From a virus, in the IMG/VR virus record IMGVR_UViG_3300005137_000002, positions 1-45,311 of that record: 45,311 bases of DNA; one strand, given 5' to 3'. The notes below the pieces were generated by a model that was given only the letters and a program-made list of their open reading frames with translations, was not told the DNA's origin and searched no databases. The position numbers and the translations under genes are program-made. Positions 3,106-27,387 of this stretch are shown in pieces (position 1 is the stretch's first letter; every line of letters starts with the position of its first letter).

Positions 3106-3561
3106 CTATTTCCGGTATTTCTTGGGTGTGAATTTGGCTTTTGCAAGTTGCTTTGCAAGCCTCATGGAGTTTTCAAGCGAGATTTTGATTAACTCTTTTG
3201 TCTCATCGTCAATTGGCTCGCCATAAAAGGCTAACGCCTCTTTGCTTTCAAGACTGGCCATGATTTTTTCCAGATCCCGTGCAATGTCCCGCTTATCCTT
3301 TTCGGTAAGTGGGGGGAGTTTGTTTTTCGGACTTTCTGGTGGCGTCGGATCGTCAGTGCGGCCAAGGATATAATCGACACTGACGCCAAAGATTTCTGCG
3401 AGCTTCATAAGCAGATCATTGTCTAGTCCTTTTTTTCCTGCCTCAATCCTAGACAACACACTGTTATGAATCCCTAGCTTTTCCGCCAGATAAAGCTGTG
3501 ACCAGTCTCGATTTTCGCGAAGCCATCTGATTCTTTCCCCAACACCCACGGATACCACCAC
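3106..3561 (-). CDS. immR: XRE-family HTH repressor (ImmR/CI-like)
   Basis: 151 aa. N-terminal HTH (GERIRWLRENRDWSQLYLAEKLGIHNSVLSRIEAG). Divergent from the early operon. Start is GTG 3561, or possibly the in-frame GTG at 3549, which has a GGTGGT SD. Confidence 0.8.
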   Translation of the reverse strand: MVVSVGVGERIRWLRENRDWSQLYLAEKLGIHNSVLSRIEAGKKGLDNDLLMKLAEIFGVSVDYILGRTDDPTPPESPKNKLPPLTEKDKRDIARDLEKIMASLESKEALAFYGEPIDDETKELIKISLENSMRLAKQLAKAKFTPKKYRK

Positions 3562-3580
3562 TTTCTATATCGGCAAAGAC

Positions 3581-3608
3581 ATTTTATCATCATTTTCTGT
3601 TTTGGAAA
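3581..3608 (-). promoter_or_regulatory. Candidate lysogeny promoter for immR-immA-int-acyltransferase
   Basis: Minus strand reads TTTCCA, 16 nt, TGATAAAAT (extended -10). The -35 is weak and the leader is short. Confidence 0.35.
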
Positions 3609-3615
3609 CTATTTT

Positions 3616-3630
3616 TTGCTGATTAGACAA
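3616..3630. promoter_or_regulatory. Operator-like site TTGCT-N5-GACAA (copy 1)
   Basis: ttgctgattagacaa, located 10 bp upstream of the -35 of the early promoter. The same pattern recurs at 3684-3698. Confidence 0.35.
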
Positions 3631-3639
3631 AAATTATCG

Positions 3640-3668
3640 TTGACATTTCCAGATTGGCAAAGTATTAT
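3640..3668 (+). promoter_or_regulatory. Early lytic promoter (sigma-A type)
   Basis: TTGACA (3640-3645), 17-nt spacer, TATTAT (3663-3668). It points at the Cro-like gene. Confidence 0.7.
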
Positions 3669-3683
3669 TTTTTTCAGTAGGGT

Positions 3684-3698
3684 TTGCTAAAATGACAA
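3684..3698. promoter_or_regulatory. Operator-like site TTGCT-N5-GACAA (copy 2)
   Basis: ttgctaaaatgacaa, just downstream of the -10 of the early promoter. Confidence 0.35.
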
Positions 3699-3742
3699 AA
3701 TACACTCGAGGTTTTGTTGTTGCGTCAAAAGGAGGTGTCAAC

Positions 3743-3985
3743 ATGAAAGGCCTAAACCTTGAATTCATCTCCAAAAGACGTTTGGAGTTGAACATAACCC
3801 TGCAAGAGATGGCGGAGGCACTTGGCTTCAAGAATGCTTCGACATACATGAAATACGAAAAAGGCGAATACGCCTTCAAAGCTAATCAGCTTCCTATTAT
3901 CGCCAAGATGCTTCAATGCCATGCAGAGGAACTGTTCCATGAGGGCAGTTTTGCCCAAGAAGCAGAGAGGCAGACAACAGCATGA
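3743..3985 (+). CDS. Cro-like XRE-family HTH protein
   Basis: HTH segment LELNITLQEMAEALGFKNASTYMKYEKG. The ATG at 3743 follows AAAGGAGG; the track ORF start at 3692 lacks an SD. Confidence 0.7.
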   Translation: MKGLNLEFISKRRLELNITLQEMAEALGFKNASTYMKYEKGEYAFKANQLPIIAKMLQCHAEELFHEGSFAQEAERQTTA

Positions 3986-4045
3986 AAGCTGGACAATCAG
4001 TGCCTCATACAATGTCACATAACCTGCTGCGGGGAGGGGAGGGGA

Positions 4046-4180
4046 ATGGATCAAATAAAGCTGAAGCCGGAAGCCATGCGCCTAGTTACGCAAATATGCG
4101 TCAGAGCAATGCTGCGAGCAAAGAAGGAAAGGGAGAACAAGCAGGAACAGACAGCAGAAAAGAAGGTTGCCGGATCTTAA
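4046..4180 (+). CDS. Small hypothetical protein (44 aa)
   Basis: ATG preceded by GGAGGGGAGGGG. The helical-looking product (MDQIKLKPEAMRLVTQICVRAML...) seems more protein-like than the overlapping low-complexity 76-aa track ORF. A 7-bp hairpin follows. Confidence 0.25.
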   Translation: MDQIKLKPEAMRLVTQICVRAMLRAKKERENKQEQTAEKKVAGS

Positions 4181-4266
4181 TTCCGGCACGGCGGACAAGC
4201 CTAATGCCATAATAATCCGATTATCCGGCTGATTGTATTCCGTTTTGGAATGAAGGGGGGTATCAA

Positions 4267-4515
4267 ATGTCGAAAGTGGGAGCGCTTCTTCGTGCTTGCC
4301 GCGAAAGAGCAGGACTTAGCCAAGAGGAATTGGCTTATTTGCTGAATCGCTCGCAGTCTTGCATATCCAAATTCGAGATGGACAAAAAGATTCCAGATAT
4401 TTACACATTCTCGCAATGGATTCAGATCACGCAGGCGCATGAAGTGGCAATCGCTTTCTTGTATGGAATGGATGGCATCAGCATCTTGTACCGACTCTTA
4501 TCGTTCTTTGGTTAG
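4267..4515 (+). CDS. XRE-family HTH protein
   Basis: 82 aa with LRACRERAGLSQEELAYLLNRSQSCISKFEMD. GAAGGGGGG SD. Confidence 0.7.
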   Translation: MSKVGALLRACRERAGLSQEELAYLLNRSQSCISKFEMDKKIPDIYTFSQWIQITQAHEVAIAFLYGMDGISILYRLLSFFG

Positions 4516-5514: not shown

Positions 5515-5757
5515 GTGCAGCCGACCGGAATCGTGCGAAAACTTGATGACCTTGGGAGGATTGTCATTCCCAAGTCAATGCGAAAAGCCCGAGGGATGGT
5601 AGTCGGTGATCCCATTGAATTCTACGTCAACGGGGACGACATCATCTTGAGGAAGTACGTTCCAGGATGCATTTTCTGTGGCGGAACGGAACGCATCACG
5701 ATGTTCCGGGACAAGAGAGTGTGCCAACAATGTAAAGACGGCATTGGGCAAGTGTGA
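5515..5757 (+). CDS. AbrB/MazE/SpoVT-family DNA-binding protein with C-terminal Cys4 ribbon
   Basis: GIVRKLDDLGRIVIPKSMRKARGM...GDPIEF is the canonical AbrB-type swapped-hairpin N-terminus. C-terminal CIFCGG...CQQC. GTG start after GGGGGTGA. Confidence 0.85.
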   Translation: MQPTGIVRKLDDLGRIVIPKSMRKARGMVVGDPIEFYVNGDDIILRKYVPGCIFCGGTERITMFRDKRVCQQCKDGIGQV

Positions 5758-5766
5758 AAACAAAAA

Positions 5767-5786
5767 GATCGCGCAAAAGCGCGATC
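5767..5786 (+). other. Perfect 8-bp stem hairpin after the AbrB-like gene
   Basis: gatcgcgc-aaaa-gcgcgatc. There is an A-tract upstream and no T-tract downstream. A further 8-bp long-range pairing links 5787-5794 with 5828-5835. Confidence 0.4.
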
Positions 5787-5859
5787 GAGGCGGTAAAAAA
5801 ATATCCATGTCAAAGCAAGAATAGCACACCGCCTCCATTCCAGCAAGGGAGGGGAAGCA

Positions 5860-6042
5860 GTGGCACGCAAGCAAAGGGTTTCAGTCGAAATCCCGTTCAG
5901 CGTACGGGCTCAGGATCAGCGGAATTTATCAAAAGTTGGAGGTTACATCGCCATCAAGGAAAACGGGAAAACGGTGTTCAAGTTCGACACCATCGAAAGC
6001 TACGAGAAGTATCTGGAATTGCAAAGGGGGACATCTGCATGA
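5860..6042 (+). CDS. Hypothetical protein (60 aa)
   Basis: GTG start after AAGGGAGGGG. The stop overlaps the ATG of the next gene (ATGA at 6039-6042). Confidence 0.5.
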   Translation: MARKQRVSVEIPFSVRAQDQRNLSKVGGYIAIKENGKTVFKFDTIESYEKYLELQRGTSA

Positions 6043-8021
6043 ATCACGTTCGATTGATCCGGCTGACAGCCCGGAATTTTAAGGGCATCAGGGAATTTTC
6101 CCTTGATGCCCGTGGGCTGGATGTTTCCGTGTACGGTGACAACGCAACGGGGAAAACAACGCTATTTGACGCGTTCTTGTGGACACTTTTTGACAAGGAC
6201 AGCGAAGGCCGTTCCGATTTTGCAGTCAAGACGCTGGACAAGGACGGCAATGTTCTGCATGGGCTGGATCACGAAGTCGAAGCCGTGCTGGACGTTTCCG
6301 GGAAGCAAATCACTTTCCGCAAAGTCTACCGCGAAAAGTGGACAAAAAAGCGCGGCTCGGCAACGGCAGAATTCACGGGACATGAGACGGATTACTACGT
6401 CAACGGCGTGCCCGTGAAGCAGAAAGAGTACAAGGAAAAAGTGGCGGAAATCATTGACGAGAACGCGTTTAAGCTGCTTACCAATCCTGCACATTTCAAT
6501 GAGCAATTGAAGTGGCAGGAGCGCAGGAAAATCCTCATGGAAGTGTGCGGGGACGTATCCTTTGAGGATGTTGTCAACTCGAACAAAGCCTTGGCAATAC
6601 TCCCGGACATCCTGAACGGGAACAGCGTGGAGGAACATAAGAGGATTGTGAACGAGCGTAGAAAGATGATCAACCGAGAATTGGAGAAGATCCCAATCCG
6701 GATCGATGAGGTTCAGCGGTCGATCCCGGAGCTTCCAGAGACAGACGAGGATTTACTTGCCGCGCGGATTGAGGCTATGCGGGAGGAAATCGGCGAAAAG
6801 GAGGCCGAGATCCAGCGAATCAAATCCGGAGGCGAGGTTGCAGTCAAGGAAAAACGCCTGCGGGAAATCGAGGCTGAACTCATCGAGATCAAAAACCGCG
6901 TGCAGGCCGGCACAATCGAACGGATGACAGAACAACGACTGGAAGTATCGAGGCTGACACAAGAGTTGGCCGGAATCCAGTCGCAAATCAAGGACAAGCA
7001 GGCAGCATGGAGCAAAAACGAGAGACTGATCGAGGAATTAAAGGCCGAAGCGAACGCGCTTCGGGAAAAGTGGAAGGAAATCAACGCAGAGCAGTTTGAG
7101 CATGAACAGGATACCCATTGCCCGACGTGTGGACAGGCCTTGCCGGAGGATCAGATCCTGTTGGCCCATCAAAAGGCCGAAGCAGAATTCAACCGCCGGA
7201 AGGCTGAGCGCCTAGAGGAAATTGCCAAGATGGGCAAGCGGAAAATGGATGAAGTCAGGGCTCTTGAAGAAGCGAATGAGAAAATCCTTGACGAACTTGC
7301 GTCACTCAAGATGGACGCAGAACTCAAGGAATCAGAATTACAGCGTGCACAAATCAAGCTGGATGAAATCCGGGCATCCATGACCGACGTTGAGGCAGAT
7401 CCGGAGTACATCAAGAAGAAACAGGAAAAGGCTGACATCGAACAGGAAATCAAGAGCTTGCGCCTGTCGGTTCATGAGGCCGTCGCCAAGGCAAGCAATG
7501 AACTCACGAGCTTGCGCGCGCAGGTGCAAGAACTTGAACGCGAAAAGGCCAAGTTTGAGCAGGTGCGAGCCGCAGAGGAACGGATCAAGGAATTGCAGGA
7601 AGAAGAAAGACGTCTTGCCGACGAATACGAACAGCTTGAGCATGAACTTTTCATGCTTGAAGAATTCATCCGAACCAAGGTTAACCTGCTGGAAGAACGG
7701 ATCAACAGCAAGTTTAAGCTTGCGAGGTTCAAACTCTTTGAACAGCAGATCAACGGAGGGCTTCAAGAAGTCTGTGAAACGATGGTTGACGGCGTGCCAT
7801 ACAACAGCATGAACAACGCCGCAAGGATAAACGTGGGGCTGGACATCATCAATACACTTTCGGAACATTTTGGCTTCTCGGCACCCATCTTCATTGACAA
7901 TGCCGAGGCAGTCACCAACCTTCTGCCAACCATTGGCCAACAGATACGGTTGGTCGTCAGCGAAAAAGACAAACAGCTTCGCGTGGAATTGGAAGACGAA
8001 AAAATCAAGGAGGCGGTATAG
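6039..8021 (+). CDS. SMC/Rad50/SbcC-like AAA ATPase with long coiled coil (recombination module)
   Basis: N-terminal RNFKGI...VYGDNATGKTTLFDA Walker A, about 400 aa of heptad-rich coiled coil with a central CPTCGQ hook-like motif, and a C-terminal IFIDNAEA Walker B/D-loop. The start at 6039 is in frame with track ORF 5754; the N-terminal extension has no SD. Confidence 0.8.
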   Translation: MNHVRLIRLTARNFKGIREFSLDARGLDVSVYGDNATGKTTLFDAFLWTLFDKDSEGRSDFAVKTLDKDGNVLHGLDHEVEAVLDVSGKQITFRKVYREKWTKKRGSATAEFTGHETDYYVNGVPVKQKEYKEKVAEIIDENAFKLLTNPAHFNEQLKWQERRKILMEVCGDVSFEDVVNSNKALAILPDILNGNSVEEHKRIVNERRKMINRELEKIPIRIDEVQRSIPELPETDEDLLAARIEAMREEIGEKEAEIQRIKSGGEVAVKEKRLREIEAELIEIKNRVQAGTIERMTEQRLEVSRLTQELAGIQSQIKDKQAAWSKNERLIEELKAEANALREKWKEINAEQFEHEQDTHCPTCGQALPEDQILLAHQKAEAEFNRRKAERLEEIAKMGKRKMDEVRALEEANEKILDELASLKMDAELKESELQRAQIKLDEIRASMTDVEADPEYIKKKQEKADIEQEIKSLRLSVHEAVAKASNELTSLRAQVQELEREKAKFEQVRAAEERIKELQEEERRLADEYEQLEHELFMLEEFIRTKVNLLEERINSKFKLARFKLFEQQINGGLQEVCETMVDGVPYNSMNNAARINVGLDIINTLSEHFGFSAPIFIDNAEAVTNLLPTIGQQIRLVVSEKDKQLRVELEDEKIKEAV

Positions 8022-13815: not shown

Positions 13816-13940
13816 GGTAAGTGCATCCGTTGAAAGGCTGAAAGCAGGATCGATGAATTGAAGTCAGGTATCAGGAGGATTCGGGATGACGTTGAGATGC
13901 TAAAGCAAATTGTCGGTGTATGAAGATGGGAGGGGTGAAA

Positions 13941-14876
13941 ATGGCATGGAAAACAAACATCGAATGGACGGATGCCACATGGAACCCGGTGACAGGATGC
14001 TCGAAAGTCAGTGACGGATGCAAGAATTGTTACGCGGAACGATTGTCACATAGATTCGGGTGGACAAGCAAGCCGTGGACGGCGGCCAATGCGGCTGAGA
14101 ACGTGATACTGAACCTTGAACGTTTGGAGCAGCCACTACGGTGGAAAAAACCACGGCGAATTTTCGTGAACAGCATGTCGGACCTGTTTCATGAGCAAGT
14201 TCCTGATTGGTTTATCCGCAAGGTGTTTCAGGTGATGGCAGAAGCAAATTGGCATATTTTTCAAGTGCTCACCAAACGCCCAAAACGCATGAAAGAAATG
14301 ATCGAACGATTGGGACCGGAGTTTGATGGGATGATTTACAACGGAACAAAGGAATCGTGGCCCATACCAAACGTCTGGCTCGGTGTAAGCGCGGAAAACC
14401 AGAAGGCTGCTGACGAGCGAATCCCACTGCTTTTGCAAACGCCAGCAGCGGTGAGGTTTCTGTCATGCGAGCCGTTGTTGGGGCCTGTGCAGATCCCCGA
14501 AGTCTTCTTGAAGAAACTCGACTGGGGCGAAGGCCCAAAAGATTGGCCGGATGGCGCCGGAACTATCGACTGGGTCATCGTTGGCGGAGAGACTGGTCCC
14601 GGGTCAAGGCCGATGCATCCTGATTGGGTGCGTAGCATCCGGGATCAGTGTGTGGAGGCAGGGGTACCGTTCTTCTTCAAGTCTTGGGGCGAATGGCTGC
14701 ATCCCTATCTTATTCGGGATGGGCAAACCGCCATGATGGAATGGGCAGGACGATTCAAGATGTACGAGTTTGATACCGACAACGTATTAAGCAGGGTAGG
14801 ACGCAGAAGGGCAGGACGATATTTAGATGGCCGAACGTGGGATGAAATGCCGGGAGGACAATCAGATGAAGGTTGA
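13941..14876 (+). CDS. Phage Gp37/Gp68-family protein (DUF5131)
   Basis: Hallmark N-terminus IEWTDATWNPVTGCSKVSDGCKNCYAE. ATG 13941 follows GGGAGGGGTG. Confidence 0.8.
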   Translation: MAWKTNIEWTDATWNPVTGCSKVSDGCKNCYAERLSHRFGWTSKPWTAANAAENVILNLERLEQPLRWKKPRRIFVNSMSDLFHEQVPDWFIRKVFQVMAEANWHIFQVLTKRPKRMKEMIERLGPEFDGMIYNGTKESWPIPNVWLGVSAENQKAADERIPLLLQTPAAVRFLSCEPLLGPVQIPEVFLKKLDWGEGPKDWPDGAGTIDWVIVGGETGPGSRPMHPDWVRSIRDQCVEAGVPFFFKSWGEWLHPYLIRDGQTAMMEWAGRFKMYEFDTDNVLSRVGRRRAGRYLDGRTWDEMPGGQSDEG

Positions 14877-18165: not shown

Positions 18166-18657
18166 ATGAATGTTCTCTCAGATGATAGGCTGGACCAGAT
18201 GATGGAGGCCATGCAGCGTGTCGAACAGGACTTGAGGGATTGCCACTGGATGGCTGAGGAAGTTGCCGATTTCTACAAGTCGAAGGAATTTTTTTCATAC
18301 GACAGGGAAACGTTGGAAAGGATTGTAAACATATCGACCGTAAAATTCGGGATCGAGGCGACGTTGCCGAAGCCTGGGGTTCCGTCAGATATAACCTTTT
18401 GGGAAGCCAAAAAGCTGCTGCGAAAGTGGGAACGGATCATGAGATATGAGCACAAGCTGAAACGGTTGGAGGAAGCGGTCTCCAAGCTGTCTGACGAACG
18501 GGAGCGCATTGTGGCTGAGGGGCTGATGGATGGAGTAAGACTTAATGAGATCGCGCAGCAGCTCGATGTCAGCCGAAGGGCTGTCTATGACATCAAACAG
18601 TCGGTGATCCGGAAGCTGGCCATTGAGCTTTACCTTAACGAGATGAGGACTGCTTGA
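18166..18657 (+). CDS. ArpU-family / sigma-70 region-4-like late transcription regulator
   Basis: 163 aa. C-terminal LSDERERIVAEGLMDGVRLNEIAQQLDVSRRAVYDIKQSVIRKL is a region-4-type HTH. GGGGGTGAGAGGGA SD. Confidence 0.6.
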   Translation: MNVLSDDRLDQMMEAMQRVEQDLRDCHWMAEEVADFYKSKEFFSYDRETLERIVNISTVKFGIEATLPKPGVPSDITFWEAKKLLRKWERIMRYEHKLKRLEEAVSKLSDERERIVAEGLMDGVRLNEIAQQLDVSRRAVYDIKQSVIRKLAIELYLNEMRTA

Positions 18658-19687: not shown

Positions 19688-19716
19688 TTGACATACGATA
19701 TACGATATCGTATAAT
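19688..19716 (+). promoter_or_regulatory. Perfect-consensus sigma-A promoter with a palindromic operator
   Basis: TTGACA (19688-19693), 17 nt, TATAAT (19711-19716). The 12-bp perfect palindrome TACGATATCGTA (19701-19712) spans the spacer and -10. Confidence 0.75.
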
Positions 19717-20944: not shown

Positions 20945-20968
20945 GACGTCCCGAAAGGGGCGTTTTTT
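20945..20968 (+). terminator. Intrinsic terminator closing the island
   Basis: acgtccc-gaaa-ggggcgt stem (one G-U pair) followed by TTTTTT. Confidence 0.75.
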
Positions 20969-20985
20969 GTTGGGGAGGAAATGAC

Positions 20986-22383
20986 ATGGCGACTGCCTTG
21001 CAAGGCTTTGGGCTTTTGGCGACATACTCAGCAATGGTTTTCCTTGTGGCATGGGCTTTCGCCAGAGGAGAGCAAACAAAAGAATCTTTCCTTGTGGCAA
21101 ACAGGAATGTCGGTGAATGGAGGGCAGCCTTCTCCATTGCATCGGCATGGATATGGGCGCCGGCCTTATTTGTCTCGGCACAGAAAGCCTATGAAAACGG
21201 ATGGGTCGGCCTTTTCTGGTTCTTGGTGCCGAACGCCTTATGCTTGGTCATCTTTTCGTATTTTGCCAAGCTGATGCGAGAGAAAGCGCCAAACGGATTT
21301 ACGTTGTCGGAATACATGCTGACCAGATATTCCAAGCGCGTGCATAACGCCTACCTTTTTCAGCAGATTGGCCTTTTGGCCTGCTGCCTTGCCGTCCAGT
21401 TGTTGGCCGGGGGAAAAATCGTGGCGACCATAACTGGAATCCCGTTCTTTTGGGTGACGGTGATCCTGGCCGCGATTGCGGTATCCTACTCCATCCTGTT
21501 TGGCCTTCGGGCGTCCGTCGTGACCGACTTTTTCAAGATGCTTTTTATCTTTGTCATTGGCGCAACCCTGATCCCTTGGGCTTTGAAAATGTCCGGCGGC
21601 CTTGAGGTGTTGAAGGCCGGACTCTACGGAAAGACAGGCACATTCACCAGTTTGTTCAGCGGTGACGGAGCCGCGCTTTTCTGGTCATTTGGCCTGTCAA
21701 CGACAATCGGATTGATCGCCGGACCGTTCGGAGATCAAGCGTTCTGGCAACGTGGCTTTGCCGTCCGAAAGGAGAAGGTGGCCGGAGCCTTTATCAAGGG
21801 TGCTTTGATTTTCTCCCTTGTGCCGCTGATGATGTCGGCGCTTGGATTCATTGCGGCCGGGGCAAATCTGGAAGTCAAAGATCCGTCTATCGTGAACGTT
21901 GAAGCGATTTTGCACCTGCTGCCTGCATGGGCTGTCATTCCGTTTATCCTGATGATCATTAGCGGCCTTGTCAGCGCGCTGGATTCTCACCTGACGGCCA
22001 TTTCATCCATCGGCGGCCACGACCTGAGCAAACGCGCAGGGAAGGAAGGCAGAAGCCTTAGCTTTGCAAGGACATCCATGATTTTTCTGATGGTGGCCGC
22101 CATCTGGATTGCAAACATCCCGGGGATTCAGGTTCTTTACCTGTTCATGCTCTACGGGACGTTGCGATCTTCCACACTGCTGCCAACAGTCATGACACTG
22201 CTTTCTGACAGGCTCACTGAAAAGGGGATCTTTTGGGGCATCGTGTCATCTATTGCGATCGGCTTGCCGATATTCGCCTACGGGAATTATCACCAGATAA
22301 CACCCATGATTGTGTCCGGGTCGCTAATTACGCTTTTCACATCCGGAGCCGTGGCTTGGCTGATGAGAAGAAAGGCGGTATGA
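20986..22383 (+). CDS. Sodium:solute-symporter-family-like transporter
   Basis: 465 aa, hydrophobic throughout (12-13 predicted helices by eye). AIAVSYSILFGLRASVVTDFFKMLFI matches the SSF signature region. GGGGAGGA SD. Confidence 0.7.
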   Translation: MATALQGFGLLATYSAMVFLVAWAFARGEQTKESFLVANRNVGEWRAAFSIASAWIWAPALFVSAQKAYENGWVGLFWFLVPNALCLVIFSYFAKLMREKAPNGFTLSEYMLTRYSKRVHNAYLFQQIGLLACCLAVQLLAGGKIVATITGIPFFWVTVILAAIAVSYSILFGLRASVVTDFFKMLFIFVIGATLIPWALKMSGGLEVLKAGLYGKTGTFTSLFSGDGAALFWSFGLSTTIGLIAGPFGDQAFWQRGFAVRKEKVAGAFIKGALIFSLVPLMMSALGFIAAGANLEVKDPSIVNVEAILHLLPAWAVIPFILMIISGLVSALDSHLTAISSIGGHDLSKRAGKEGRSLSFARTSMIFLMVAAIWIANIPGIQVLYLFMLYGTLRSSTLLPTVMTLLSDRLTEKGIFWGIVSSIAIGLPIFAYGNYHQITPMIVSGSLITLFTSGAVAWLMRRKAV

Positions 22384-23162
22384 GGTTGCTCAAAAGAAAG
22401 CAGTCGTCAAGCAATGAGGAATGGCTGAAGGTCTTCCGGGAGATTGAAAGACACGTCTCAAAGAATTCGATTGATGTCCTGATTCATAAAACCGTCGAAG
22501 AAATCAGGGCAAAGTGCAGAGGAAAAGAGGCTGCTTTCGCTTGGAGTGGCGGCAAGGATTCGGTTGTCATCGAATTTTTGTGCCGGCTGGCCGGAATCAG
22601 GGAGGGCGTGGCCGTTGTCTGCAACCTTGAATACCCGGCCTTTTACCGCTGGCTGGTGGAGAACAGGCCGGAAGGCGTCCAGGTAATCAACACCGGGCAG
22701 GATCTTGAGTGGCTTGCCCAAAACCTTGAAATGCTTTTCCCGAGAGACAACAGGTTGGCCGCCAAGTGGTACCGCATTGTGCAGCACGAAGGGCAGACGC
22801 GGTACTTTCGAGAAAGGAAACCAGACCTGCTGATACTTGGAAGGCGGAAGGCGGACGGAAATTACACGGGCAAGGGGAACATTTACACCAACAAAAAGGG
22901 CGTCGTCAGATACAACCCGATTGCCGACTGGACGCATGAGGAAGTGCTGGCGGCGATTCATTACTACAGGCTGCCGCTTCCGCCGATATACGAATGGCCG
23001 GACGGATTCAGGCAGGGCACTCATCCGTGGCCGGCGCGGCTGTACACGCAAAACGTGTTTGACGGATTCAGGCAAGTGTACAAGATCGATCCGTCAATCG
23101 TCCATGAGGCAGCCGGACATATCGAGCAAGCAAAGCGATTCCTAGAGGTGATAAACGCATGA
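22380..23162 (+). CDS. PAPS-reductase-family PP-loop ATP pyrophosphatase (pair 1)
   Basis: AFAWSGGKDSVV PP-loop, LGRRKADG, NPIADWTHEEVLAAIHYYRLPLPPIY. ATGA overlap with the symporter stop. Confidence 0.8.
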   Translation: MRLLKRKQSSSNEEWLKVFREIERHVSKNSIDVLIHKTVEEIRAKCRGKEAAFAWSGGKDSVVIEFLCRLAGIREGVAVVCNLEYPAFYRWLVENRPEGVQVINTGQDLEWLAQNLEMLFPRDNRLAAKWYRIVQHEGQTRYFRERKPDLLILGRRKADGNYTGKGNIYTNKKGVVRYNPIADWTHEEVLAAIHYYRLPLPPIYEWPDGFRQGTHPWPARLYTQNVFDGFRQVYKIDPSIVHEAAGHIEQAKRFLEVINA

Positions 23163-23884
23163 AGACGGAGAAAGTAAAGCTGGCTGATCTGAGGCATCCA
23201 GAAAAGAACGTCCGAATCCATACGGAAAAGCAGATTCAGGAAATGATCCGCAGCATTGAAATGTTCGGCCAGATCCGTCCCGTCGTGATTGATGAAAAGA
23301 ACGTTATTCTTGCAGGTAATGGGCTGGTCGAAGCCATGCGGAAAATGGGTCTCGCTGAGGCCGACGCGCTGAGAGTAACGGGACTGACGGAGACGCAAAA
23401 GAAAAAGCTGATGCTGGCCGACAACAAGATTTACAGTTTGGGTGTTGATGATCTGGATGTCATTTACGAGATGCTGAGAGAGTTTGAAGACGACTTTGAT
23501 GTCCCGGGATTCGATGAGGACCTGCTGCGGGATCTGCTGGCCGATGTTGACCATGTGGATGAAAAGATTCAGGAGTACGGAAAGCTGGCCGAAGAAGAAA
23601 TCGAGGAAATAAGGCTTGCAGCTGAGCGCAAGGAAGAACGGATCATGAGAGCACAGGCCGTCCAAGAGGATGAGCCGACGGATGACATTGACGAGGACGA
23701 CGACGGAGGCAATGAAGTCCCGGCCGCAGGCCGTGAACACGTCAGGGAATGGGACGATGACGATGAATCATACGAGGAAGACGAAGAAGGTGGCGAATAC
23801 ATCAGGGGTTCTGTGGAGATGGAACGGGTACAGCCGATGCGGTACATCGTCTGTCCGCATTGCGGCGAAAAGGTTTATTTGTAG
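23159..23884 (+). CDS. ParB-N-domain (ParB/Srx-like) protein with acidic tail and C-terminal zinc ribbon (pair 1)
   Basis: LADLRHPEKNVRIH...IRPVVIDEKNVILAGNGLVEAM. ATGA overlap with the upstream gene. The C-terminal third is strongly Asp/Glu-rich and ends in CPHCGEK. Confidence 0.75.
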   Translation: MKTEKVKLADLRHPEKNVRIHTEKQIQEMIRSIEMFGQIRPVVIDEKNVILAGNGLVEAMRKMGLAEADALRVTGLTETQKKKLMLADNKIYSLGVDDLDVIYEMLREFEDDFDVPGFDEDLLRDLLADVDHVDEKIQEYGKLAEEEIEEIRLAAERKEERIMRAQAVQEDEPTDDIDEDDDGGNEVPAAGREHVREWDDDDESYEEDEEGGEYIRGSVEMERVQPMRYIVCPHCGEKVYL

Positions 23885-23894
23885 GTGAAAAAGG

Positions 23895-25067
23895 ATGGCG
23901 ATTGCAAGGCGGAAATCGAACCTAAACGTCGTCGAGGCAGCCAAGATCCGGTTAAAGAACATATTTTCAAACAAGGTTCCCGTTTACTTTTCATTTTCTG
24001 GCGGCAAGGATTCGCTGGTGCTGGCACACTTGATTTATTCGCTCATCCAGAAGGGCGAGATTGATCCAAAGCTCTTGACGGTTCACTTTATCGACGAGGA
24101 AGCCATATTTCCATGCGTCGAACGGATCGTCAAGGACTGGCGACGCCGTTTCATGATGGTTGGCGCAAAATTCGTCTGGTTTTGCTTGGAGGTCAAGCAC
24201 TATAGCTGCCTGAACGAGTTGGAGAACGACGAGTCGTTCATCTGCTGGGATCGATACAAAAAGGACGTGTGGGTGCGTCCGATGCCGCCCTTTGCCGTCA
24301 GCAGTCATCCACTGTTAAGACCGCGCAAGGACACATATCAGGATTTCTTGCCAAGGATTGAGACAGACGGGATCACCATCGTTGGGGTCAGGACTGCGGA
24401 ATCTTTTCAGCGTCTTTCGTACTTTTCGCAGAACGGCGGAAAGATGACGACAAACCGGAAGATGTTTCCGATTTACGACTGGAAAAACGATGACGTGTGG
24501 CTTTATTTATACGAGAACAACATTGAAATTCCTGATGCTTATCTTTACATGTGGCAGACCGGGGCCAAAAAGTCCGAGCTACGGATTTCACAGTTTTTCT
24601 CCATCGACACCGTGCGGCATCTGGTAAACCTGAACGAATACTATCCGGACTTGATGAAACGAATCACGCGCAGGGAGCCAAATGCCTACCTGGTCGCCCT
24701 CTATTGGGACAGCGAGATGTTCAGGAGAAACTCCAAAAGACGCCGCGAAAATGAGGAAAAGCTGGCCGAAAGAAACGACCAGCAGCCAAAGGAAGAAGAA
24801 TCATATCGCAAGAAGTTGGCAAAGTTGCTGGCGGACATCGACGGAAATTTTGACACTGAGCATAAAAGGTGGATTGCAAAGCGTTACAGAGCGCAGCTTT
24901 TGAAGTACCATAACCTGCAATTCGATGAATCCAGATACAAGGAGTTGTATGAGGCTCTTGTTGCCGGAGACCCGAAGCGCAGGAGCTTGAGGGCGATTAT
25001 GCACAACGTAATCAGCGATCATATCTCATTCGCCAAAGGCGAAAAGGTGATGAAAGATGAGCGGTGA
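23895..25067 (+). CDS. PAPS-reductase-family PP-loop protein with long C-terminal extension (IbrA/DUF3440-like; pair 2)
   Basis: YFSFSGGKDSLVL PP-loop, YDWKNDDVWLYL. About 150-aa basic/helical C-terminal domain. Confidence 0.8.
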   Translation: MAIARRKSNLNVVEAAKIRLKNIFSNKVPVYFSFSGGKDSLVLAHLIYSLIQKGEIDPKLLTVHFIDEEAIFPCVERIVKDWRRRFMMVGAKFVWFCLEVKHYSCLNELENDESFICWDRYKKDVWVRPMPPFAVSSHPLLRPRKDTYQDFLPRIETDGITIVGVRTAESFQRLSYFSQNGGKMTTNRKMFPIYDWKNDDVWLYLYENNIEIPDAYLYMWQTGAKKSELRISQFFSIDTVRHLVNLNEYYPDLMKRITRREPNAYLVALYWDSEMFRRNSKRRRENEEKLAERNDQQPKEEESYRKKLAKLLADIDGNFDTEHKRWIAKRYRAQLLKYHNLQFDESRYKELYEALVAGDPKRRSLRAIMHNVISDHISFAKGEKVMKDER

Positions 25068-25581
25068 AAAAGACTTGTTTGCGCCGCTGAAGTCGTTGCA
25101 CTTTGTTGAGCGCGAAAAACTGAAACCGAATGACTACAACCCAAACGTGGTGCCGAAGGAAAACCTTGAATTGCTGATCCAGTCCATCCTTACCAATGGT
25201 TGGACATTGCCCATCGTCGTGCGGCCAGATTACACCATCATCGACGGATTTCACAGATGGACAGTATCAGGCATGGAGCCGTTGAAAACGAAACTTGGCG
25301 GTAAAGTCCCGGTGGTCATTGTTGATCACGAAGACGAAGCCAAGAACATCTACGGAACAGTGACGCACAACAGGGCAAGAGGCACGCACCTGTTGGAGCC
25401 GATGAAGGCCATTGTTAAGCGCCTCTTGAATTCTGGCAAGACAATCGACGAGATCAGCAAGCAGCTTGGCATGAAGAAGGAGGAAATCTTTCGATTGTCC
25501 GACTTCACCCGCGAGGAATTTTTGGCCATGATGGCGCAGGGAAAGGAGTACAGCAAGGCTGAAATCATTCGGCGAATTTAG
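25057..25581 (+). CDS. ParB-like protein (IbrB-like; pair 2)
   Basis: LKPNDYNPNVVP...IVVRPDYTIIDGFHRW. 11-nt overlap with the upstream gene. Confidence 0.75.
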   Translation: MSGEKDLFAPLKSLHFVEREKLKPNDYNPNVVPKENLELLIQSILTNGWTLPIVVRPDYTIIDGFHRWTVSGMEPLKTKLGGKVPVVIVDHEDEAKNIYGTVTHNRARGTHLLEPMKAIVKRLLNSGKTIDEISKQLGMKKEEIFRLSDFTREEFLAMMAQGKEYSKAEIIRRI

Positions 25582-25591
25582 GTGATAGTCC

Positions 25592-26110
25592 ATGAACAAA
25601 GGAGGCAGGCCGACAAAACTTACACGGGAACTTCAGGAAGAGATCTGCCGGGTCATAAGGGCCGGCAATTACATTGAGACGGCTGCCGCCTATGCCGGAA
25701 TCAACAAGTCAACCTTGTATGATTGGCTAAAGCGGGGCGCAAGAGAAAAAGAGAGGCTAAGGAACAATCCACGGGCAAAAGTGAGGAAATCCGAGCAGCC
25801 TTATGTGGAGTTTTCCAACGCAGTAGAAAAAGCGCTGGCTGATTCGGAAGTCCGGGACGTCATGATCATAGGGAAGGCGGCAGAGGAAAACTGGCAGGCG
25901 GCAGCATGGCGGCTTGAGCGGAAATTCAAGGAACGATGGGGACGTAGTACGGATTACAACCGCGAGGTTGAACGCCTGAACGCCATGATCGAGAAGACCA
26001 AAAAGGAGATCGAACTGCTTGAGGAACGCATAAAGGCGCTCAAAGGAGAGACCAAGGACACCACTCTGCTTGAAACATTGGTCAAGGTGGTGCAGGGTGA
26101 GCAGCAATGA
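25592..26110 (+). CDS. terS: Terminase small subunit
   Basis: N-terminal GGRPTKLTRELQEEICRVIRAGNYIETAAAYAGINKSTLYDWLKRG HTH. Directly precedes and overlaps the large subunit gene. Confidence 0.8.
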   Translation: MNKGGRPTKLTRELQEEICRVIRAGNYIETAAAYAGINKSTLYDWLKRGAREKERLRNNPRAKVRKSEQPYVEFSNAVEKALADSEVRDVMIIGKAAEENWQAAAWRLERKFKERWGRSTDYNREVERLNAMIEKTKKEIELLEERIKALKGETKDTTLLETLVKVVQGEQQ

Positions 26111-27387
26111 CCATCAAGTTTTCCAAAAAGCAGTTGGAGATCATTCGTGCGCCATTTGACCATACACTGGATGTCTTGGAAGGCACGCCGAGATCAGGCA
26201 AGACGACTGCCGCTGTGTTTCGATATGCCTATTATCTCACGATAACTGAGGACGAAAGCCACCTGATTGTCGCCTACAACCAAGAGCAGGCTTACCGGTT
26301 ATTCATCGAAAGCGACGGATTCGGTCTACGGCATATCTTCGGACCGTTATGTGAACTGAGGCATGATGAGAACGGGGCACACTTGGAAATCCACACACCA
26401 AAGGGAATAAAACGGGTGTACTACAAAGGCGGAGGAAAAGGCGACAGCCACAAGGCGATTACAGGTTTATCCTTGGGGTCTGTCGTTTTTTGTGAGATCA
26501 ACCTTTTGCACATGTCCATGATTCAAGAGTGTTTCCGGCGGACGTTTGCGGCAAAAATGCGCTATCACTTGGCCGACTTAAATCCGCCACCGCCTAACCA
26601 TCCGGTGATCAAAGAAGTCTTTGAGGTTCAAAAGACACGCTGGACGCATTGGACGATACATGACAATCCGATTATCACGGAGGAACGCAAGCGCGAAATC
26701 TACGAGACGTTGAAGAAGAATCAGTATTTGCTCCAGCGTGACTGGTATGGAAAGCGTGTGCTGCCGGAAGGCGTCATTTATTCCATGTTCGATTTTGAGA
26801 AGAACATTAAGCCCGAATTGCAGGGAGAGCCCGTTGAGATGTTTTTCGTGGCCGACGGCGGCCAATCTGATGCCACTTCATGCAGTTGCAACATCGTGAC
26901 CCGCAAGATGGTTGACGGGAGGTACAAATACTTTCTGAACCGCGTGGCGCATTACTACCATTCCGGTAAAGAAACGGGACAGGTCAAAGCCATGTCCATT
27001 TACGCAAGGGAGATTCAGGCGTTCATCCAGTGGTGCATTGAAAAGTACCGGATGCGCTACACTGAGATTTTCGTTGATCCGGCCTGTAAGTCTTTGCGTG
27101 AGGAATTGCACTTGCTTGGCCTGCATACGAGGCCTGCCGACACCAATTCCAGCGACGTCAAGGGAGCCTCAAAAGGGATTGAAGTCGGGATCGAGCGTGG
27201 CCAGAATCTCATCACGAACGAGCAATTCTTTCTGATCGAAACCGACAAGTATGACCACTATCATTTCCTGAAGGAGATCGGGATGTACGCGAGGGACGAA
27301 AAAGGAAAGCCAATCGACGACTTCAACCATGCGATGGACGAGTTTCGATATAGCGTTAATTACTTCTATCGGCGCTATGTCATATAG
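26107..27387 (+). CDS. terL: Terminase large subunit
   Basis: 426 aa. Walker A GTPRSGKTTA, with a C-terminal nuclease-like acidic motif region. The position is conserved. Confidence 0.9.
   Translation: MTIKFSKKQLEIIRAPFDHTLDVLEGTPRSGKTTAAVFRYAYYLTITEDESHLIVAYNQEQAYRLFIESDGFGLRHIFGPLCELRHDENGAHLEIHTPKGIKRVYYKGGGKGDSHKAITGLSLGSVVFCEINLLHMSMIQECFRRTFAAKMRYHLADLNPPPPNHPVIKEVFEVQKTRWTHWTIHDNPIITEERKREIYETLKKNQYLLQRDWYGKRVLPEGVIYSMFDFEKNIKPELQGEPVEMFFVADGGQSDATSCSCNIVTRKMVDGRYKYFLNRVAHYYHSGKETGQVKAMSIYAREIQAFIQWCIEKYRMRYTEIFVDPACKSLREELHLLGLHTRPADTNSSDVKGASKGIEVGIERGQNLITNEQFFLIETDKYDHYHFLKEIGMYARDEKGKPIDDFNHAMDEFRYSVNYFYRRYVI

Follow-up and report, generated by a model that had tools for sequence, protein, structure and literature searches.

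A phage cassette joining an exchangeable transporter, PP-loop enzymes and ParB-fold proteins upstream of the terminase

In this work we describe a five-gene cassette on the plus strand of the IMG/VR virus record IMGVR_UViG_3300005137_000002, whose full stretch of 45,311 nucleotides (nt), referred to below as the window, is a temperate gut phage contig of about 45 kb drawn from an ENA metagenome assembly. The cassette joins a membrane transporter of the SSF family to two PP-loop proteins of the PAPS-reductase family (PAPS1 and PAPS2) and two ParB-fold proteins (ParB1 and ParB2). Comparison with related loci resolves it into a conserved core, ParB1-PAPS2-ParB2, and an accessory unit made up of the transporter with or without PAPS1. 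In all sampled cores closely related to that of the window a transporter is present, and it is exchanged among three architectures. That the cassette is carried by hundreds of related phages with three transporter types suggests an undescribed pathway that uses an externally acquired molecule. The cassette and its immediate context comprise the following features (aa, amino acids):

20945-20972, plus strand: intrinsic-terminator-like hairpin, GACGTCCC-GAAA-GGGGCGTT, followed by a T-run (terminator scan: hairpin and T-run 20945-20964)
20986-22383, plus strand: SSF-family membrane transporter, 465 aa, about 11 hydrophobic, putatively transmembrane spans by a crude hydropathy count; Pfam SSF, phrog_20720
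22380-23162, plus strand: PAPS1, predicted PP-loop ATP pyrophosphatase, 260 aa from the ATG at 22380; SGGKDS; Pfam PAPS_reduct
23159-23884, plus strand: ParB1, ParB-N-fold protein, 241 aa; phrog_620, phrog_498
23895-25067, plus strand: PAPS2, IbrA-like PP-loop enzyme, 390 aa; SGGKDS; Pfam PAPS_reduct, phrog_2302
25057-25581, plus strand: ParB2, IbrB-like ParB/Srx-fold protein, 174 aa; Pfam ParB_N, phrog_2159
25592-26110, plus strand: TerS, context outside the cassette; phrog_4102 (2e-42)
26107-27387, plus strand: TerL, context outside the cassette; phrog_10250 and phrog_2 are further matches of the TerS/TerL pair

A profile search with the SSF clade recovered relatives on 429 viral contigs of IMG/VR and in 353 stretches of GTDB species-representative genomes; the 80 best loci of each were fetched, and, as this limit applies to every scan, the proportions given below describe the nearer relatives. 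SSF-PAPS1-ParB1-PAPS2-ParB2 or a close variant thereof is present in almost every viral locus sampled and in each of the 60 Clostridia genome loci, a few short contigs ending within the cassette; among the hosts are Clostridioides difficile, Flavonifractor, Blautia, Acetatifactor and Dysosmobacter. Upon dereplication at 85% SSF identity, 54 lineages were obtained, and across these ParB1 is found in 53, PAPS2 in 52, ParB2 in 49 and PAPS1 in 39; the order is kept and the genes are tightly packed. A gene order that recurs in 54 dereplicated symporter lineages puts the arrangement far beyond chance. The earlier proposal that the genes form one functional unit is upheld. A variant order, SSF ... 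PAPS1-ParB1-ParB2-PAPS2, was observed at L014 (7952-8551) and in loci of the L018, L038 and L047 type, where the SSF-PAPS1 gap of 650-1000 bp holds an open reading frame (ORF) of about 199 aa without a PHROG match.

Loci anchored on individual members show how the parts of the cassette travel together. In viral loci anchored on PAPS1, an SSF gene lies immediately upstream in all 59 evaluable cases. With ParB2 as the anchor, a transporter is located 5' of the ParB1-PAPS2-ParB2 trio in 60 of 60 evaluable loci: 27 have the SSF protein, 29 a membrane protein of about 330 aa (hereinafter MP330), and four an ABC permease with a substrate-binding protein (SBP). A recount with an MP330 hidden Markov model divides these into 23 loci with MP330 and the trio, 21 with SSF, PAPS1 and the trio, six with SSF and the trio, six with MP330, PAPS1 and the trio, and four with the ABC permease, SBP and the trio; in the six that have PAPS1 without SSF, it is MP330 that occupies the SSF slot. 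Among 20 viral loci anchored on the SBP, 19 have the order ABC permease-SBP-ParB1-PAPS2-ParB2, five of these with PAPS1 inserted after the SBP, and the contig bearing the twentieth stops after the SBP gene. PAPS1, which is also found 3' of MP330 or the SBP, was never seen without a transporter. Based on these counts, in which PAPS1 is repeatedly lost and never transporter-free, the two tandem PP-loop/ParB pairs that had originally been put forward are rejected, and the cassette is parsed as a core trio with an accessory unit of transporter and optional PAPS1.

The flanks of the cassette are not conserved: at least four TerS and at least four TerL PHROG families lie downstream, and an activator of the RinA/phrog_36 type is often found upstream. 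It follows that the cassette moves among phages that otherwise differ, always landing between the late activator and terS, a slot that implies late timing. Pairs of PP-loop and ParB proteins near phage terminases are themselves common, being annotated as IbrA/IbrB or as a PAPS reductase with a ParB-like nuclease in 223-229 cultured phage records. Distant IbrA/IbrB-type sets, such as those of Streptococcus thermophilus phage CHPC1148 and phage vB_RanS_PJN03, have no transporter, and transporter coupling is therefore a trait of a sub-clade and not of the whole family. Full-text searches of the literature found no paper linking a transporter to PAPS-reductase/ParB genes in phages, and none recognising the trio, the displacement of the transporter, or the link of the SSF clade with PP-loop enzymes. 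The statement that no description of the arrangement was known holds for discussion in the papers searched, whereas the arrangement itself is widespread and a variant of it is present in the cultured phage FP_Taranis (see below).

Within the window the cassette is compact. The five same-strand genes of the original prediction, which had been made from the letters alone, were recovered together with the two ATGA overlaps, seen directly in the sequence at 22380-22383 (SSF/PAPS1) and 23159-23162 (PAPS1/ParB1), and the 11-nt overlap of PAPS2 with ParB2 (25057-25067, from the ORF coordinates). As ORFs were called mechanically, start codons are approximate: for PAPS1 the mechanical ORF extends back to a TTG at 22233, and a public gene call begins at 22386 (258 aa). 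The placement of the cassette just 5' of the terminase is likewise confirmed, with TerS and TerL directly downstream and a spacer of 10 nt between ParB2 and TerS. On the other side, the terminator-like hairpin closes the preceding gene, 14 nt 5' of the ribosome-binding site and start of the cassette; no promoter-like site was found between the hairpin and 20986, and the terminator scan agrees with the earlier description of a unit lying directly behind a terminator with no promoter visible. The gene identities also stood, for the SSF protein, the two PAPS_reduct proteins and the ParB_N protein by Pfam and for ParB1 by PHROG and PDB profiles.

The symporter matches Pfam SSF (PF00474) over residues 35-419 with an E-value of 1.3e-21 (77.5 bits, cutoff 22.8), and is a divergent member of the family, since its 120.8 bits against TIGR00813 fall under the cutoff of 184. 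Its full-length PHROG match is phrog_20720 (9e-137), annotated there as "function unknown". It falls in none of the characterised SSF substrate subfamilies PanF, PutP, DUR3 and SGLT (PanF, 50.6 bits against 328; PutP, 30.4 against 515), and its top PDB sequence matches are DUR3 urea/H+ symporters (2e-15), over the N-terminal 190 residues only. Among 5.8 billion proteins the closest non-self homologue is 59% identical, which means that there is no near-identical host copy; the possibility that the symporter is a random moron was rejected on this ground and on that of its co-occurrence in related loci, the related phages carrying either the symporter or a replacement transporter. A nucleotide search of cultured phages returned nothing, a protein search with the symporter returned only two unannotated faecal contigs, and PADLOC placed neither the symporter nor MP330 in a defence system. 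In the alignment of the SSF clade, which has 58% mean column identity across phyla, D181, D250, D333, R256 and R394 are invariant, and this tight conservation together with the invariant charged residues suggests a single polar substrate class for the clade.

The proteins that fill the SSF slot in other phages differ in their architecture. MP330 is a multi-pass membrane protein that aligns with the SSF clade by hhalign (88%, E 3e-6), with an SIAATW motif in common, and by this profile comparison is a remote, shortened SSF relative. The third type combines an ABC permease with a lipoprotein SBP of the NMT1/THI5/TauA/SsuA/ThiY-like family, the nearest solved relatives of which are THI5, TauA, SsuA and ThiY; the surroundings of the ABC-type loci yielded no gene for an ABC ATPase, and the phages in question presumably borrow one from the host. 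Because MP330 is a remote SSF relative and the SBP belongs to the TauA/SsuA/ThiY-like family, the transporter must have been swapped while the enzymes were retained. Taken together, the transporter families, DUR3-like for the SSF protein and TauA/SsuA/ThiY/THI5-like for the SBP, point to a small polar solute containing N or S. The permease and SBP without an ATPase occur at L289, L309 (SBP at 3339-4298), L318, L321 and L326-L345. The ORF 5' of the permease in L309 was considered as the missing ATPase and rejected, being a further PP-loop protein; such a Cys-rich PP-loop protein (SGGKDS ... CCCCP) lies just 5' of the permease in L309 and L326, and L327 and L328 carry a homologue about 4 kb further upstream.

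Members of the same SSF clade are also found in cells, namely in Patescibacteria, Planctomycetota, Spirochaetota, Electrothrix, a Clostridia metagenome-assembled genome (MAG) and other MAGs, where they have no ParB or PAPS genes beside them but usually adjoin other PP-loop proteins. In 10 loci the SSF gene is accompanied by those for a 580-aa AsnB-like enzyme (SGGIDS), a 326-aa protein matching the TopoVI-A/Spo11-type Toprim domain and a small TPR protein; in seven it is found with a 366-aa SGGIDS protein and a 230-aa partner, and in one with a 276-aa SGGFDS protein. In a rough neighbor-joining tree, SSF proteins with the same type of partner cluster together. A gene of the SSF clade nearly always has one for a PP-loop enzyme as its neighbour, and this clade-wide link, together with the displacement of the transporter, strengthens the import-then-ATP-activation logic of the original prediction.

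The operon of AsnB-like, Toprim, TPR and SSF genes, which appears to be uncharacterised and the non-SSF partners of which gave no PADLOC match, was observed at L008 (4791-9410), L089 (3173-7611), L094, L096, L099 and L172, as well as at L100, L102 and L108, and in CSSED10. Its AsnB-like proteins begin with MG[SA]L or MSIV and not with MCG, indicating that they have no Cys2 glutaminase nucleophile and must use another nucleophile or cyclise. The pair of 366-aa and 230-aa proteins, for which neither Pfam nor NCBIfam nor PDB sequence searches returned a match, occurs in the candidate phyla radiation at L090 (7497-9280), L093, L101, L103, L105 (Patescibacteria) and L171; the 366-aa protein was considered as a close relative of PAPS1 and rejected, the alignment being confined to the PP-loop region. 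L003 (4607-9353) belongs to an IMG/VR contig that encodes a T4-type neck protein; its SSF gene is flanked by genes for a twitch radical-SAM enzyme, a GNAT acetyltransferase and two PP-loop proteins resembling QueC/TilS, seemingly a distinct pathway for a small molecule or nucleobase that uses the same transporter clade.

Both PP-loop proteins of the cassette contain SGGKDS and match Pfam PAPS_reduct (PF01507; 2e-10 for PAPS1 and 8.3e-14 for PAPS2). PAPS2 further matches phrog_2302 (2e-86), is 25-30% identical to phage proteins annotated as IbrA, and weakly matches BrxP, DndC and TilS, the PADLOC matches to BrxP (1.4e-11) and DndC (6e-8) covering partial stretches only. Its C-terminal extension, helical in the model, had been described as IbrA/DUF3440-like; this did not hold up, as Pfam DUF3440 (PF11922) is silent on PAPS2 even at E<=1 and matches only two of 33 orthologues. 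An identity as CysH or a sulfate-assimilation enzyme was rejected for both proteins: the NCBIfam cysH models give 16-20 bits against cutoffs of 154-165, and neither the catalytic Cys of the ECGLH type at the C-terminus of CysH nor the CC..CxxC Fe-S motif of APS reductases, as quoted in 10.1101/2021.01.05.425418, is present in PAPS1 or PAPS2. The CysD and TilS cutoffs are likewise widely missed, and TIGR03183 (DndC) gives 26.3 bits against 290.4. Phage PAPS reductases are routinely labelled as sulfur auxiliary metabolic genes (AMGs; 10.1101/2021.01.05.425418, PMC11318856, PMC12323421); with the CysH, CysD, DndC and TilS models so widely missed, this label is not supported for either protein. 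In PAPS1 the sole well-conserved Cys is C68, beside the PP-loop, and there is no conserved Cys at the C-terminus. PAPS2 has three mid-protein Cys residues, Cys97, Cys105 and Cys117, conserved in 91-94 of 96 sequences (>94%), in addition to His102, and none at the C-terminus.

The AlphaFold2 (AF2) model of PAPS1 has a pLDDT of 94, and Foldseek places it about equally close to PAPS/APS reductases, TtuA, CysD and the GMP-synthase ATPPase (TMq ~0.5), with a value of 1e-6 against CysH and APS reductases. That of PAPS2 is moderate (pLDDT 70, with the Cys loop below 50), and its neighbours are NcsA, the PAPS domain of FAD synthase, TilS, TtuA and LarE. The fold searches pick out no single characterised enzyme and no close solved structure for either PP-loop protein, and PDB sequence searches with all four soluble proteins of the cassette gave weak, generic PP-loop or ParB matches only.

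ParB1 has no Pfam match and is recognised through phrog_620 "ParB-like" (3.8e-43) and PDB profile matches to the Spo0J/ParB/Noc/Srx group (8e-6 for ParB/Spo0J/Noc). It also matches phrog_498 "DNA methyltransferase", which contains ParB-methyltransferase fusions (2.1e-31), and PADLOC MTase_II (1.9e-18). At the position of the Arg-rich GERR box it has AGNGL, followed by an acidic variable linker, and it ends (window 23852-23884) in a tail of about 12 residues with a CPxCG motif conserved in 99 of 102 sequences, which could serve as a zinc-hook-like dimerisation motif or dock at the 3-Cys site of PAPS2. ParB2, which matches Pfam ParB_N (9e-7) and phrog_2159 (2.6e-68), is the most conserved member of the cassette, with a median identity of 70% and invariant DGFHRW and HNRARGTH motifs; it is 72% identical to FP_Taranis gp38 "IbrB" and 37% to the IbrB of an S. 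thermophilus phage, and has a weak match to SerK. Neither is a canonical ParB: against TIGR00180, ParB2 scores 34.8 bits (cutoff 58.45) and ParB1 has no match, the place of the Arg-rich box is taken by DGFHRW in ParB2 as it is by AGNGL in ParB1, and neither a helix-turn-helix (HTH) parS-binding domain nor a ParA partner was found in the cassette proteins and the genes of 10986-32383, the region for which the Pfam survey of the window is complete (it is partial elsewhere). No HTH of any kind was detected in PAPS1, PAPS2, ParB1 or ParB2. ATP, GTP or CTP is bound by the ParB fold, to which the small-molecule kinases SerK and Srx also belong (PMC12704722), and ParB/Srx proteins are able to nick DNA (PMC12839542).

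Several known systems share parts of this organization. One is IbrA/IbrB, a prophage pair in which a PAPS-reductase-fold PP-loop protein precedes a small ParB_N protein, a pattern that PAPS2-ParB2 fit, with identities to IbrA/IbrB-annotated homologues of 25-30% for PAPS2 and 37-72% for ParB2. The cassette differs from it in adding ParB1, PAPS1, an obligate transporter and a fixed slot ahead of terS, and in a PAPS2 that the DUF3440 model does not recognise. The E. coli IbrA/IbrB proteins, with the paralogues YbdN/YbdM, are reportedly the only family members studied experimentally. The variant in Faecalibacterium phage FP_Taranis (NC_047914, gp35-gp38) runs from a RinA-like activator through a "transporter membrane protein", a ParB-like protein, a PAPS reductase/IbrA and a ParB-like/IbrB protein to TerS/TerL. 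Its transporter is a 333-aa protein of the MP330 type (48% identical to the MP330 of L267) and not a 465-aa SSF protein, PAPS1 is lacking, and its ParB2 is the 72%-identical homologue of the window protein; these genes are annotated in the record and unmentioned in the paper on the phage (PMC5883640).

The pairing of a PP-loop ATP pyrophosphatase with a ParB-superfamily protein on DNA is also seen in the Dnd/Ssp and BREX type 4 systems (DndC, SspD and BrxP with DndB). We know of no transporter in these systems. They are host defence systems, whereas the cassette belongs to phage late genes, and no DndA/D/E or SspA/B/C partners occur among the genes of 10986-32383 or in the conserved flanks of the 54 lineages. 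The three conserved Cys of PAPS2, which lie in a loop modelled at a pLDDT below 50, may be compared with the 3-Cys [4Fe-4S] site of TtuA, NcsA and DndC (PMC10853773). The Dpd system (DpdA-DpdB-DpdC) and the phage thymine dioxygenases offer a further parallel, in that an enzyme modifying DNA has a ParB-like protein as its partner or activator, as we propose for the cassette: a phage ParB-like protein has been shown experimentally to be required by a thymine dioxygenase on double-stranded DNA (PMC13229309), and DpdB and DndB have comparable partnerships (PMC12839542, PMC10853773). In those systems, however, the catalytic partner is a tRNA-guanine transglycosylase (TGT; Dpd) or an Fe/2OG dioxygenase (phage) and not a PP-loop enzyme, and ParB1, unlike the ParB-like proteins compared, lacks the Arg-rich NTP box. 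Genes of the TGT and QueC/D/E families are absent from the neighbourhood of the cassette, the combination of QueC-like and SSF genes occurring only in the unrelated viral contig L003. For the transporter half of the cassette, a parallel is ActP-Acs, in which an SSF acetate permease is co-transcribed with acetyl-CoA synthetase and adenylation traps the imported solute; there the enzyme belongs to the ANL superfamily and not to the PP-loop proteins, and the cassette differs in its location in a phage late operon.

As our best explanation, though one that we stop short of calling probable, we tentatively propose that the cassette might import a molecule, activate it in an ATP-dependent manner and modify phage DNA with the assistance of ParB-fold proteins before packaging. 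An SSF-type importer, translationally coupled to PAPS1, would take up a specific external small molecule, which PAPS1 would trap or activate by adenylation with a logic like that of ActP-Acs. The ParB1-PAPS2-ParB2 unit would then act as an IbrA/IbrB-type set in which PAPS2, through its 3-Cys/His site, would perform an ATP-dependent transfer and ParB1 and ParB2 would load or activate PAPS2 on double-stranded phage DNA, or nick it; the outcome would be progeny genomes chemically marked just before terminase packaging. That three transport architectures replace one another as importer argues strongly, on genetic grounds, for an outside molecule as a substrate, and the predicted order of import, PP-loop (adenylyl) activation and a step needing two ParB-fold proteins is supported by the genetics. 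We further infer that the transporter would import rather than sense, that the PP-loop chemistry would act on the imported compound and that DNA would be the final acceptor. DNA is favoured in this role because it is well established that DNA-modifying enzymes can have ParB-fold partners (DndB, DpdB, the phage activator), because the nearest relatives of ParB1 are domains of DNA methyltransferase fusions, because the late, terminase-adjacent slot has the right timing, and because the cellular SSF operons pair a PP-loop enzyme with a Toprim-type, DNA-directed protein. DNA modification for anti-restriction, the purpose originally suggested, is a reasonable inference in this context. A fuller version, which we regard as rather doubtful, would have gut-Clostridia phages install a DNA mark (on base or backbone) derived from an exogenous metabolite before packaging, by means of an interchangeable importer, one or two PP-loop enzymes and two ParB-fold loaders, with the pairing of the same SSF clade with Cys2-less AsnB-like and Toprim proteins marking an analogous cellular system.

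Several observations weigh against DNA modification. A DNA-binding HTH, a glycosylase/TGT, a cysteine desulfurase and any other known DNA-modification partner are absent from the Pfam list of 10986-32383, and the structural neighbours of PAPS1 and PAPS2 act on small molecules or tRNA and not on DNA. The studied members, E. coli IbrA/IbrB, are said to be co-activators of prophage gene expression, a description echoed in record annotations. The distant pairs of CHPC1148 and vB_RanS_PJN03 do without any transporter, and that of CHPC1148 also without the terminase-proximal slot, which vB_RanS_PJN03 keeps. Furthermore, with no ATPase gene nearby, the ABC variant would depend on a host partner for its function, and the model of PAPS2 is only moderate, with the Cys loop at low confidence.

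An alternative is a metabolite-responsive regulator: ParB1-PAPS2-ParB2 would co-activate prophage or late genes as E. coli IbrA/IbrB do, and the transporter, with or without PAPS1, would supply a cue, and the adenylated form of this cue, or its consumption, would tune late transcription or the choice between lysis and lysogeny. The homology of PAPS2 and ParB2 to IbrA- and IbrB-annotated proteins and the location of the cassette at the head of the late operon, beside RinA-like or phrog_36 activators, are in its favour, and gut solutes would be informative cues. We nevertheless consider it unlikely, as both enzymes keep SGGKDS and many catalytic-type residues without variation, which argues for real catalysis, two enzymes and two ParB-fold proteins make heavy machinery for a sensor, the four soluble proteins have no detectable HTH, and a gene 3' of the activator and co-transcribed with the terminase would be made too late to decide late transcription. 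Auxiliary metabolism, in which an imported S or N nutrient or cofactor precursor (sulfonate/taurine, thiamine-pyrimidine or flavin-like) would be converted by the PP-loop enzymes, through FAD-synthase-like adenylylation or sulfur assimilation, and boost host metabolism during virion production, is in our estimate also unlikely. It would agree with the TauA/SsuA/ThiY/THI5 affinity of the SBP, with the PAPS-reductase fold and the Foldseek matches to the FAD synthase PAPS domain, CysD and PAPS/APS reductases, and with the sulfur-AMG label given to phage PAPS reductases in the literature (10.1101/2021.01.05.425418, PMC11318856). However, PAPS1 lacks the conserved C-terminal catalytic Cys and PAPS2 the CC..CxxC motif, the NCBIfam cutoffs for cysH, CysD and DndC are widely missed, the proteins are phage-specific and not host-like, and the obligate link to two ParB-fold proteins and the terminase-proximal slot would be left unexplained.

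That the acceptor might be RNA or the nucleotide pool, with the PP-loop enzymes placing the imported compound on host or phage tRNA or on free nucleotides so as to evade defences that target tRNA or nucleotides and the ParB/Srx-fold proteins acting as NTP-dependent kinases or switches, seems to us decidedly unlikely. The closest structural neighbours of PAPS2 are indeed the tRNA enzymes NcsA, TilS and TtuA, its trio of conserved Cys may be likened to the [4Fe-4S] site with three Cys in TtuA, NcsA and DndC (PMC10853773), and the nucleotide-binding ParB fold with its SerK and Srx kinases (PMC12704722) would suit the weak SerK match of ParB2. Yet the window contains no tRNA genes or Rfam families and Pfam detects no RNA-binding domain such as THUMP or PUA, and both the relationship of ParB1 to the ParB domains of DNA methyltransferase fusions and the late, terminase-adjacent expression fit DNA better. 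That the ParB-like proteins are nucleases acting with the terminase, a refuting possibility raised in the original prediction, here extended to assistance of the kind given by HNH proteins with the remaining genes as unrelated passengers, is in our judgement highly improbable: although the cassette is always directly 5' of terS/terL and ParB/Srx proteins can nick DNA (PMC12839542), it is found ahead of four or more unrelated TerS and TerL families and is therefore not co-adapted to one terminase, and its strict co-inheritance of PP-loop enzymes and transporter would go unexplained.

Phage "PAPS reductases" are among the most often reported AMGs of gut viromes and are routinely read as sulfur metabolism, but in one large clade they fail the tests for CysH and belong to a fixed module with ParB-fold proteins and a dedicated importer that heads the packaging operon; it is in itself unusual for a phage to encode a solute importer linked to an enzymatic module. 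If the products are indeed marks on DNA, the cassette would represent a new class of environment-dependent phage DNA modification, with a bearing on restriction evasion and on gut-virome sequencing artefacts, and the chemistry of phage genomes, hence restriction evasion, would depend on supply from the gut lumen. Should it prove to be a regulator or a metabolic pathway, the long-enigmatic IbrA/IbrB family would nonetheless gain a chemistry. Tractable entry points are the cultured phage FP_Taranis and the soluble binding protein, whose ligand could be directly identified.

Elsewhere in the window, a perfect consensus sigma-70 promoter (TTGACA, 17 nt, TATAAT; 12 of 12 positions) lies at 19688-19716, about 40 nt 5' of a 79-aa ORF (19759) and about 1.3 kb 5' of the cassette, and could drive a transcript that reads through the terminator at 20945. 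The late regulator on which, if not on read-through, the unit was expected to depend had been called ArpU-like; the candidate late-gene regulator 5' of the cassette is instead a 163-aa protein (18166-18657) with GerE/LuxR HTH and ECF-sigma region-4 (sigma-70 region 4) matches, and ArpU is not among its Pfam matches. In the early/replication region we observed a 755-aa SMC/RecF-like AAA_23 protein (5754-8021) and a strong match to DUF5131 (Gp37/Gp68; 13920-14876, 4.7e-103). At the contig end, a membrane acyltransferase (HGSNAT_cat/Acyl_transf_3) adjoins a large serine recombinase (76-1188 and 1228-2637, both on the minus strand), and is likely to be a lysogenic-conversion gene modifying a surface polysaccharide.

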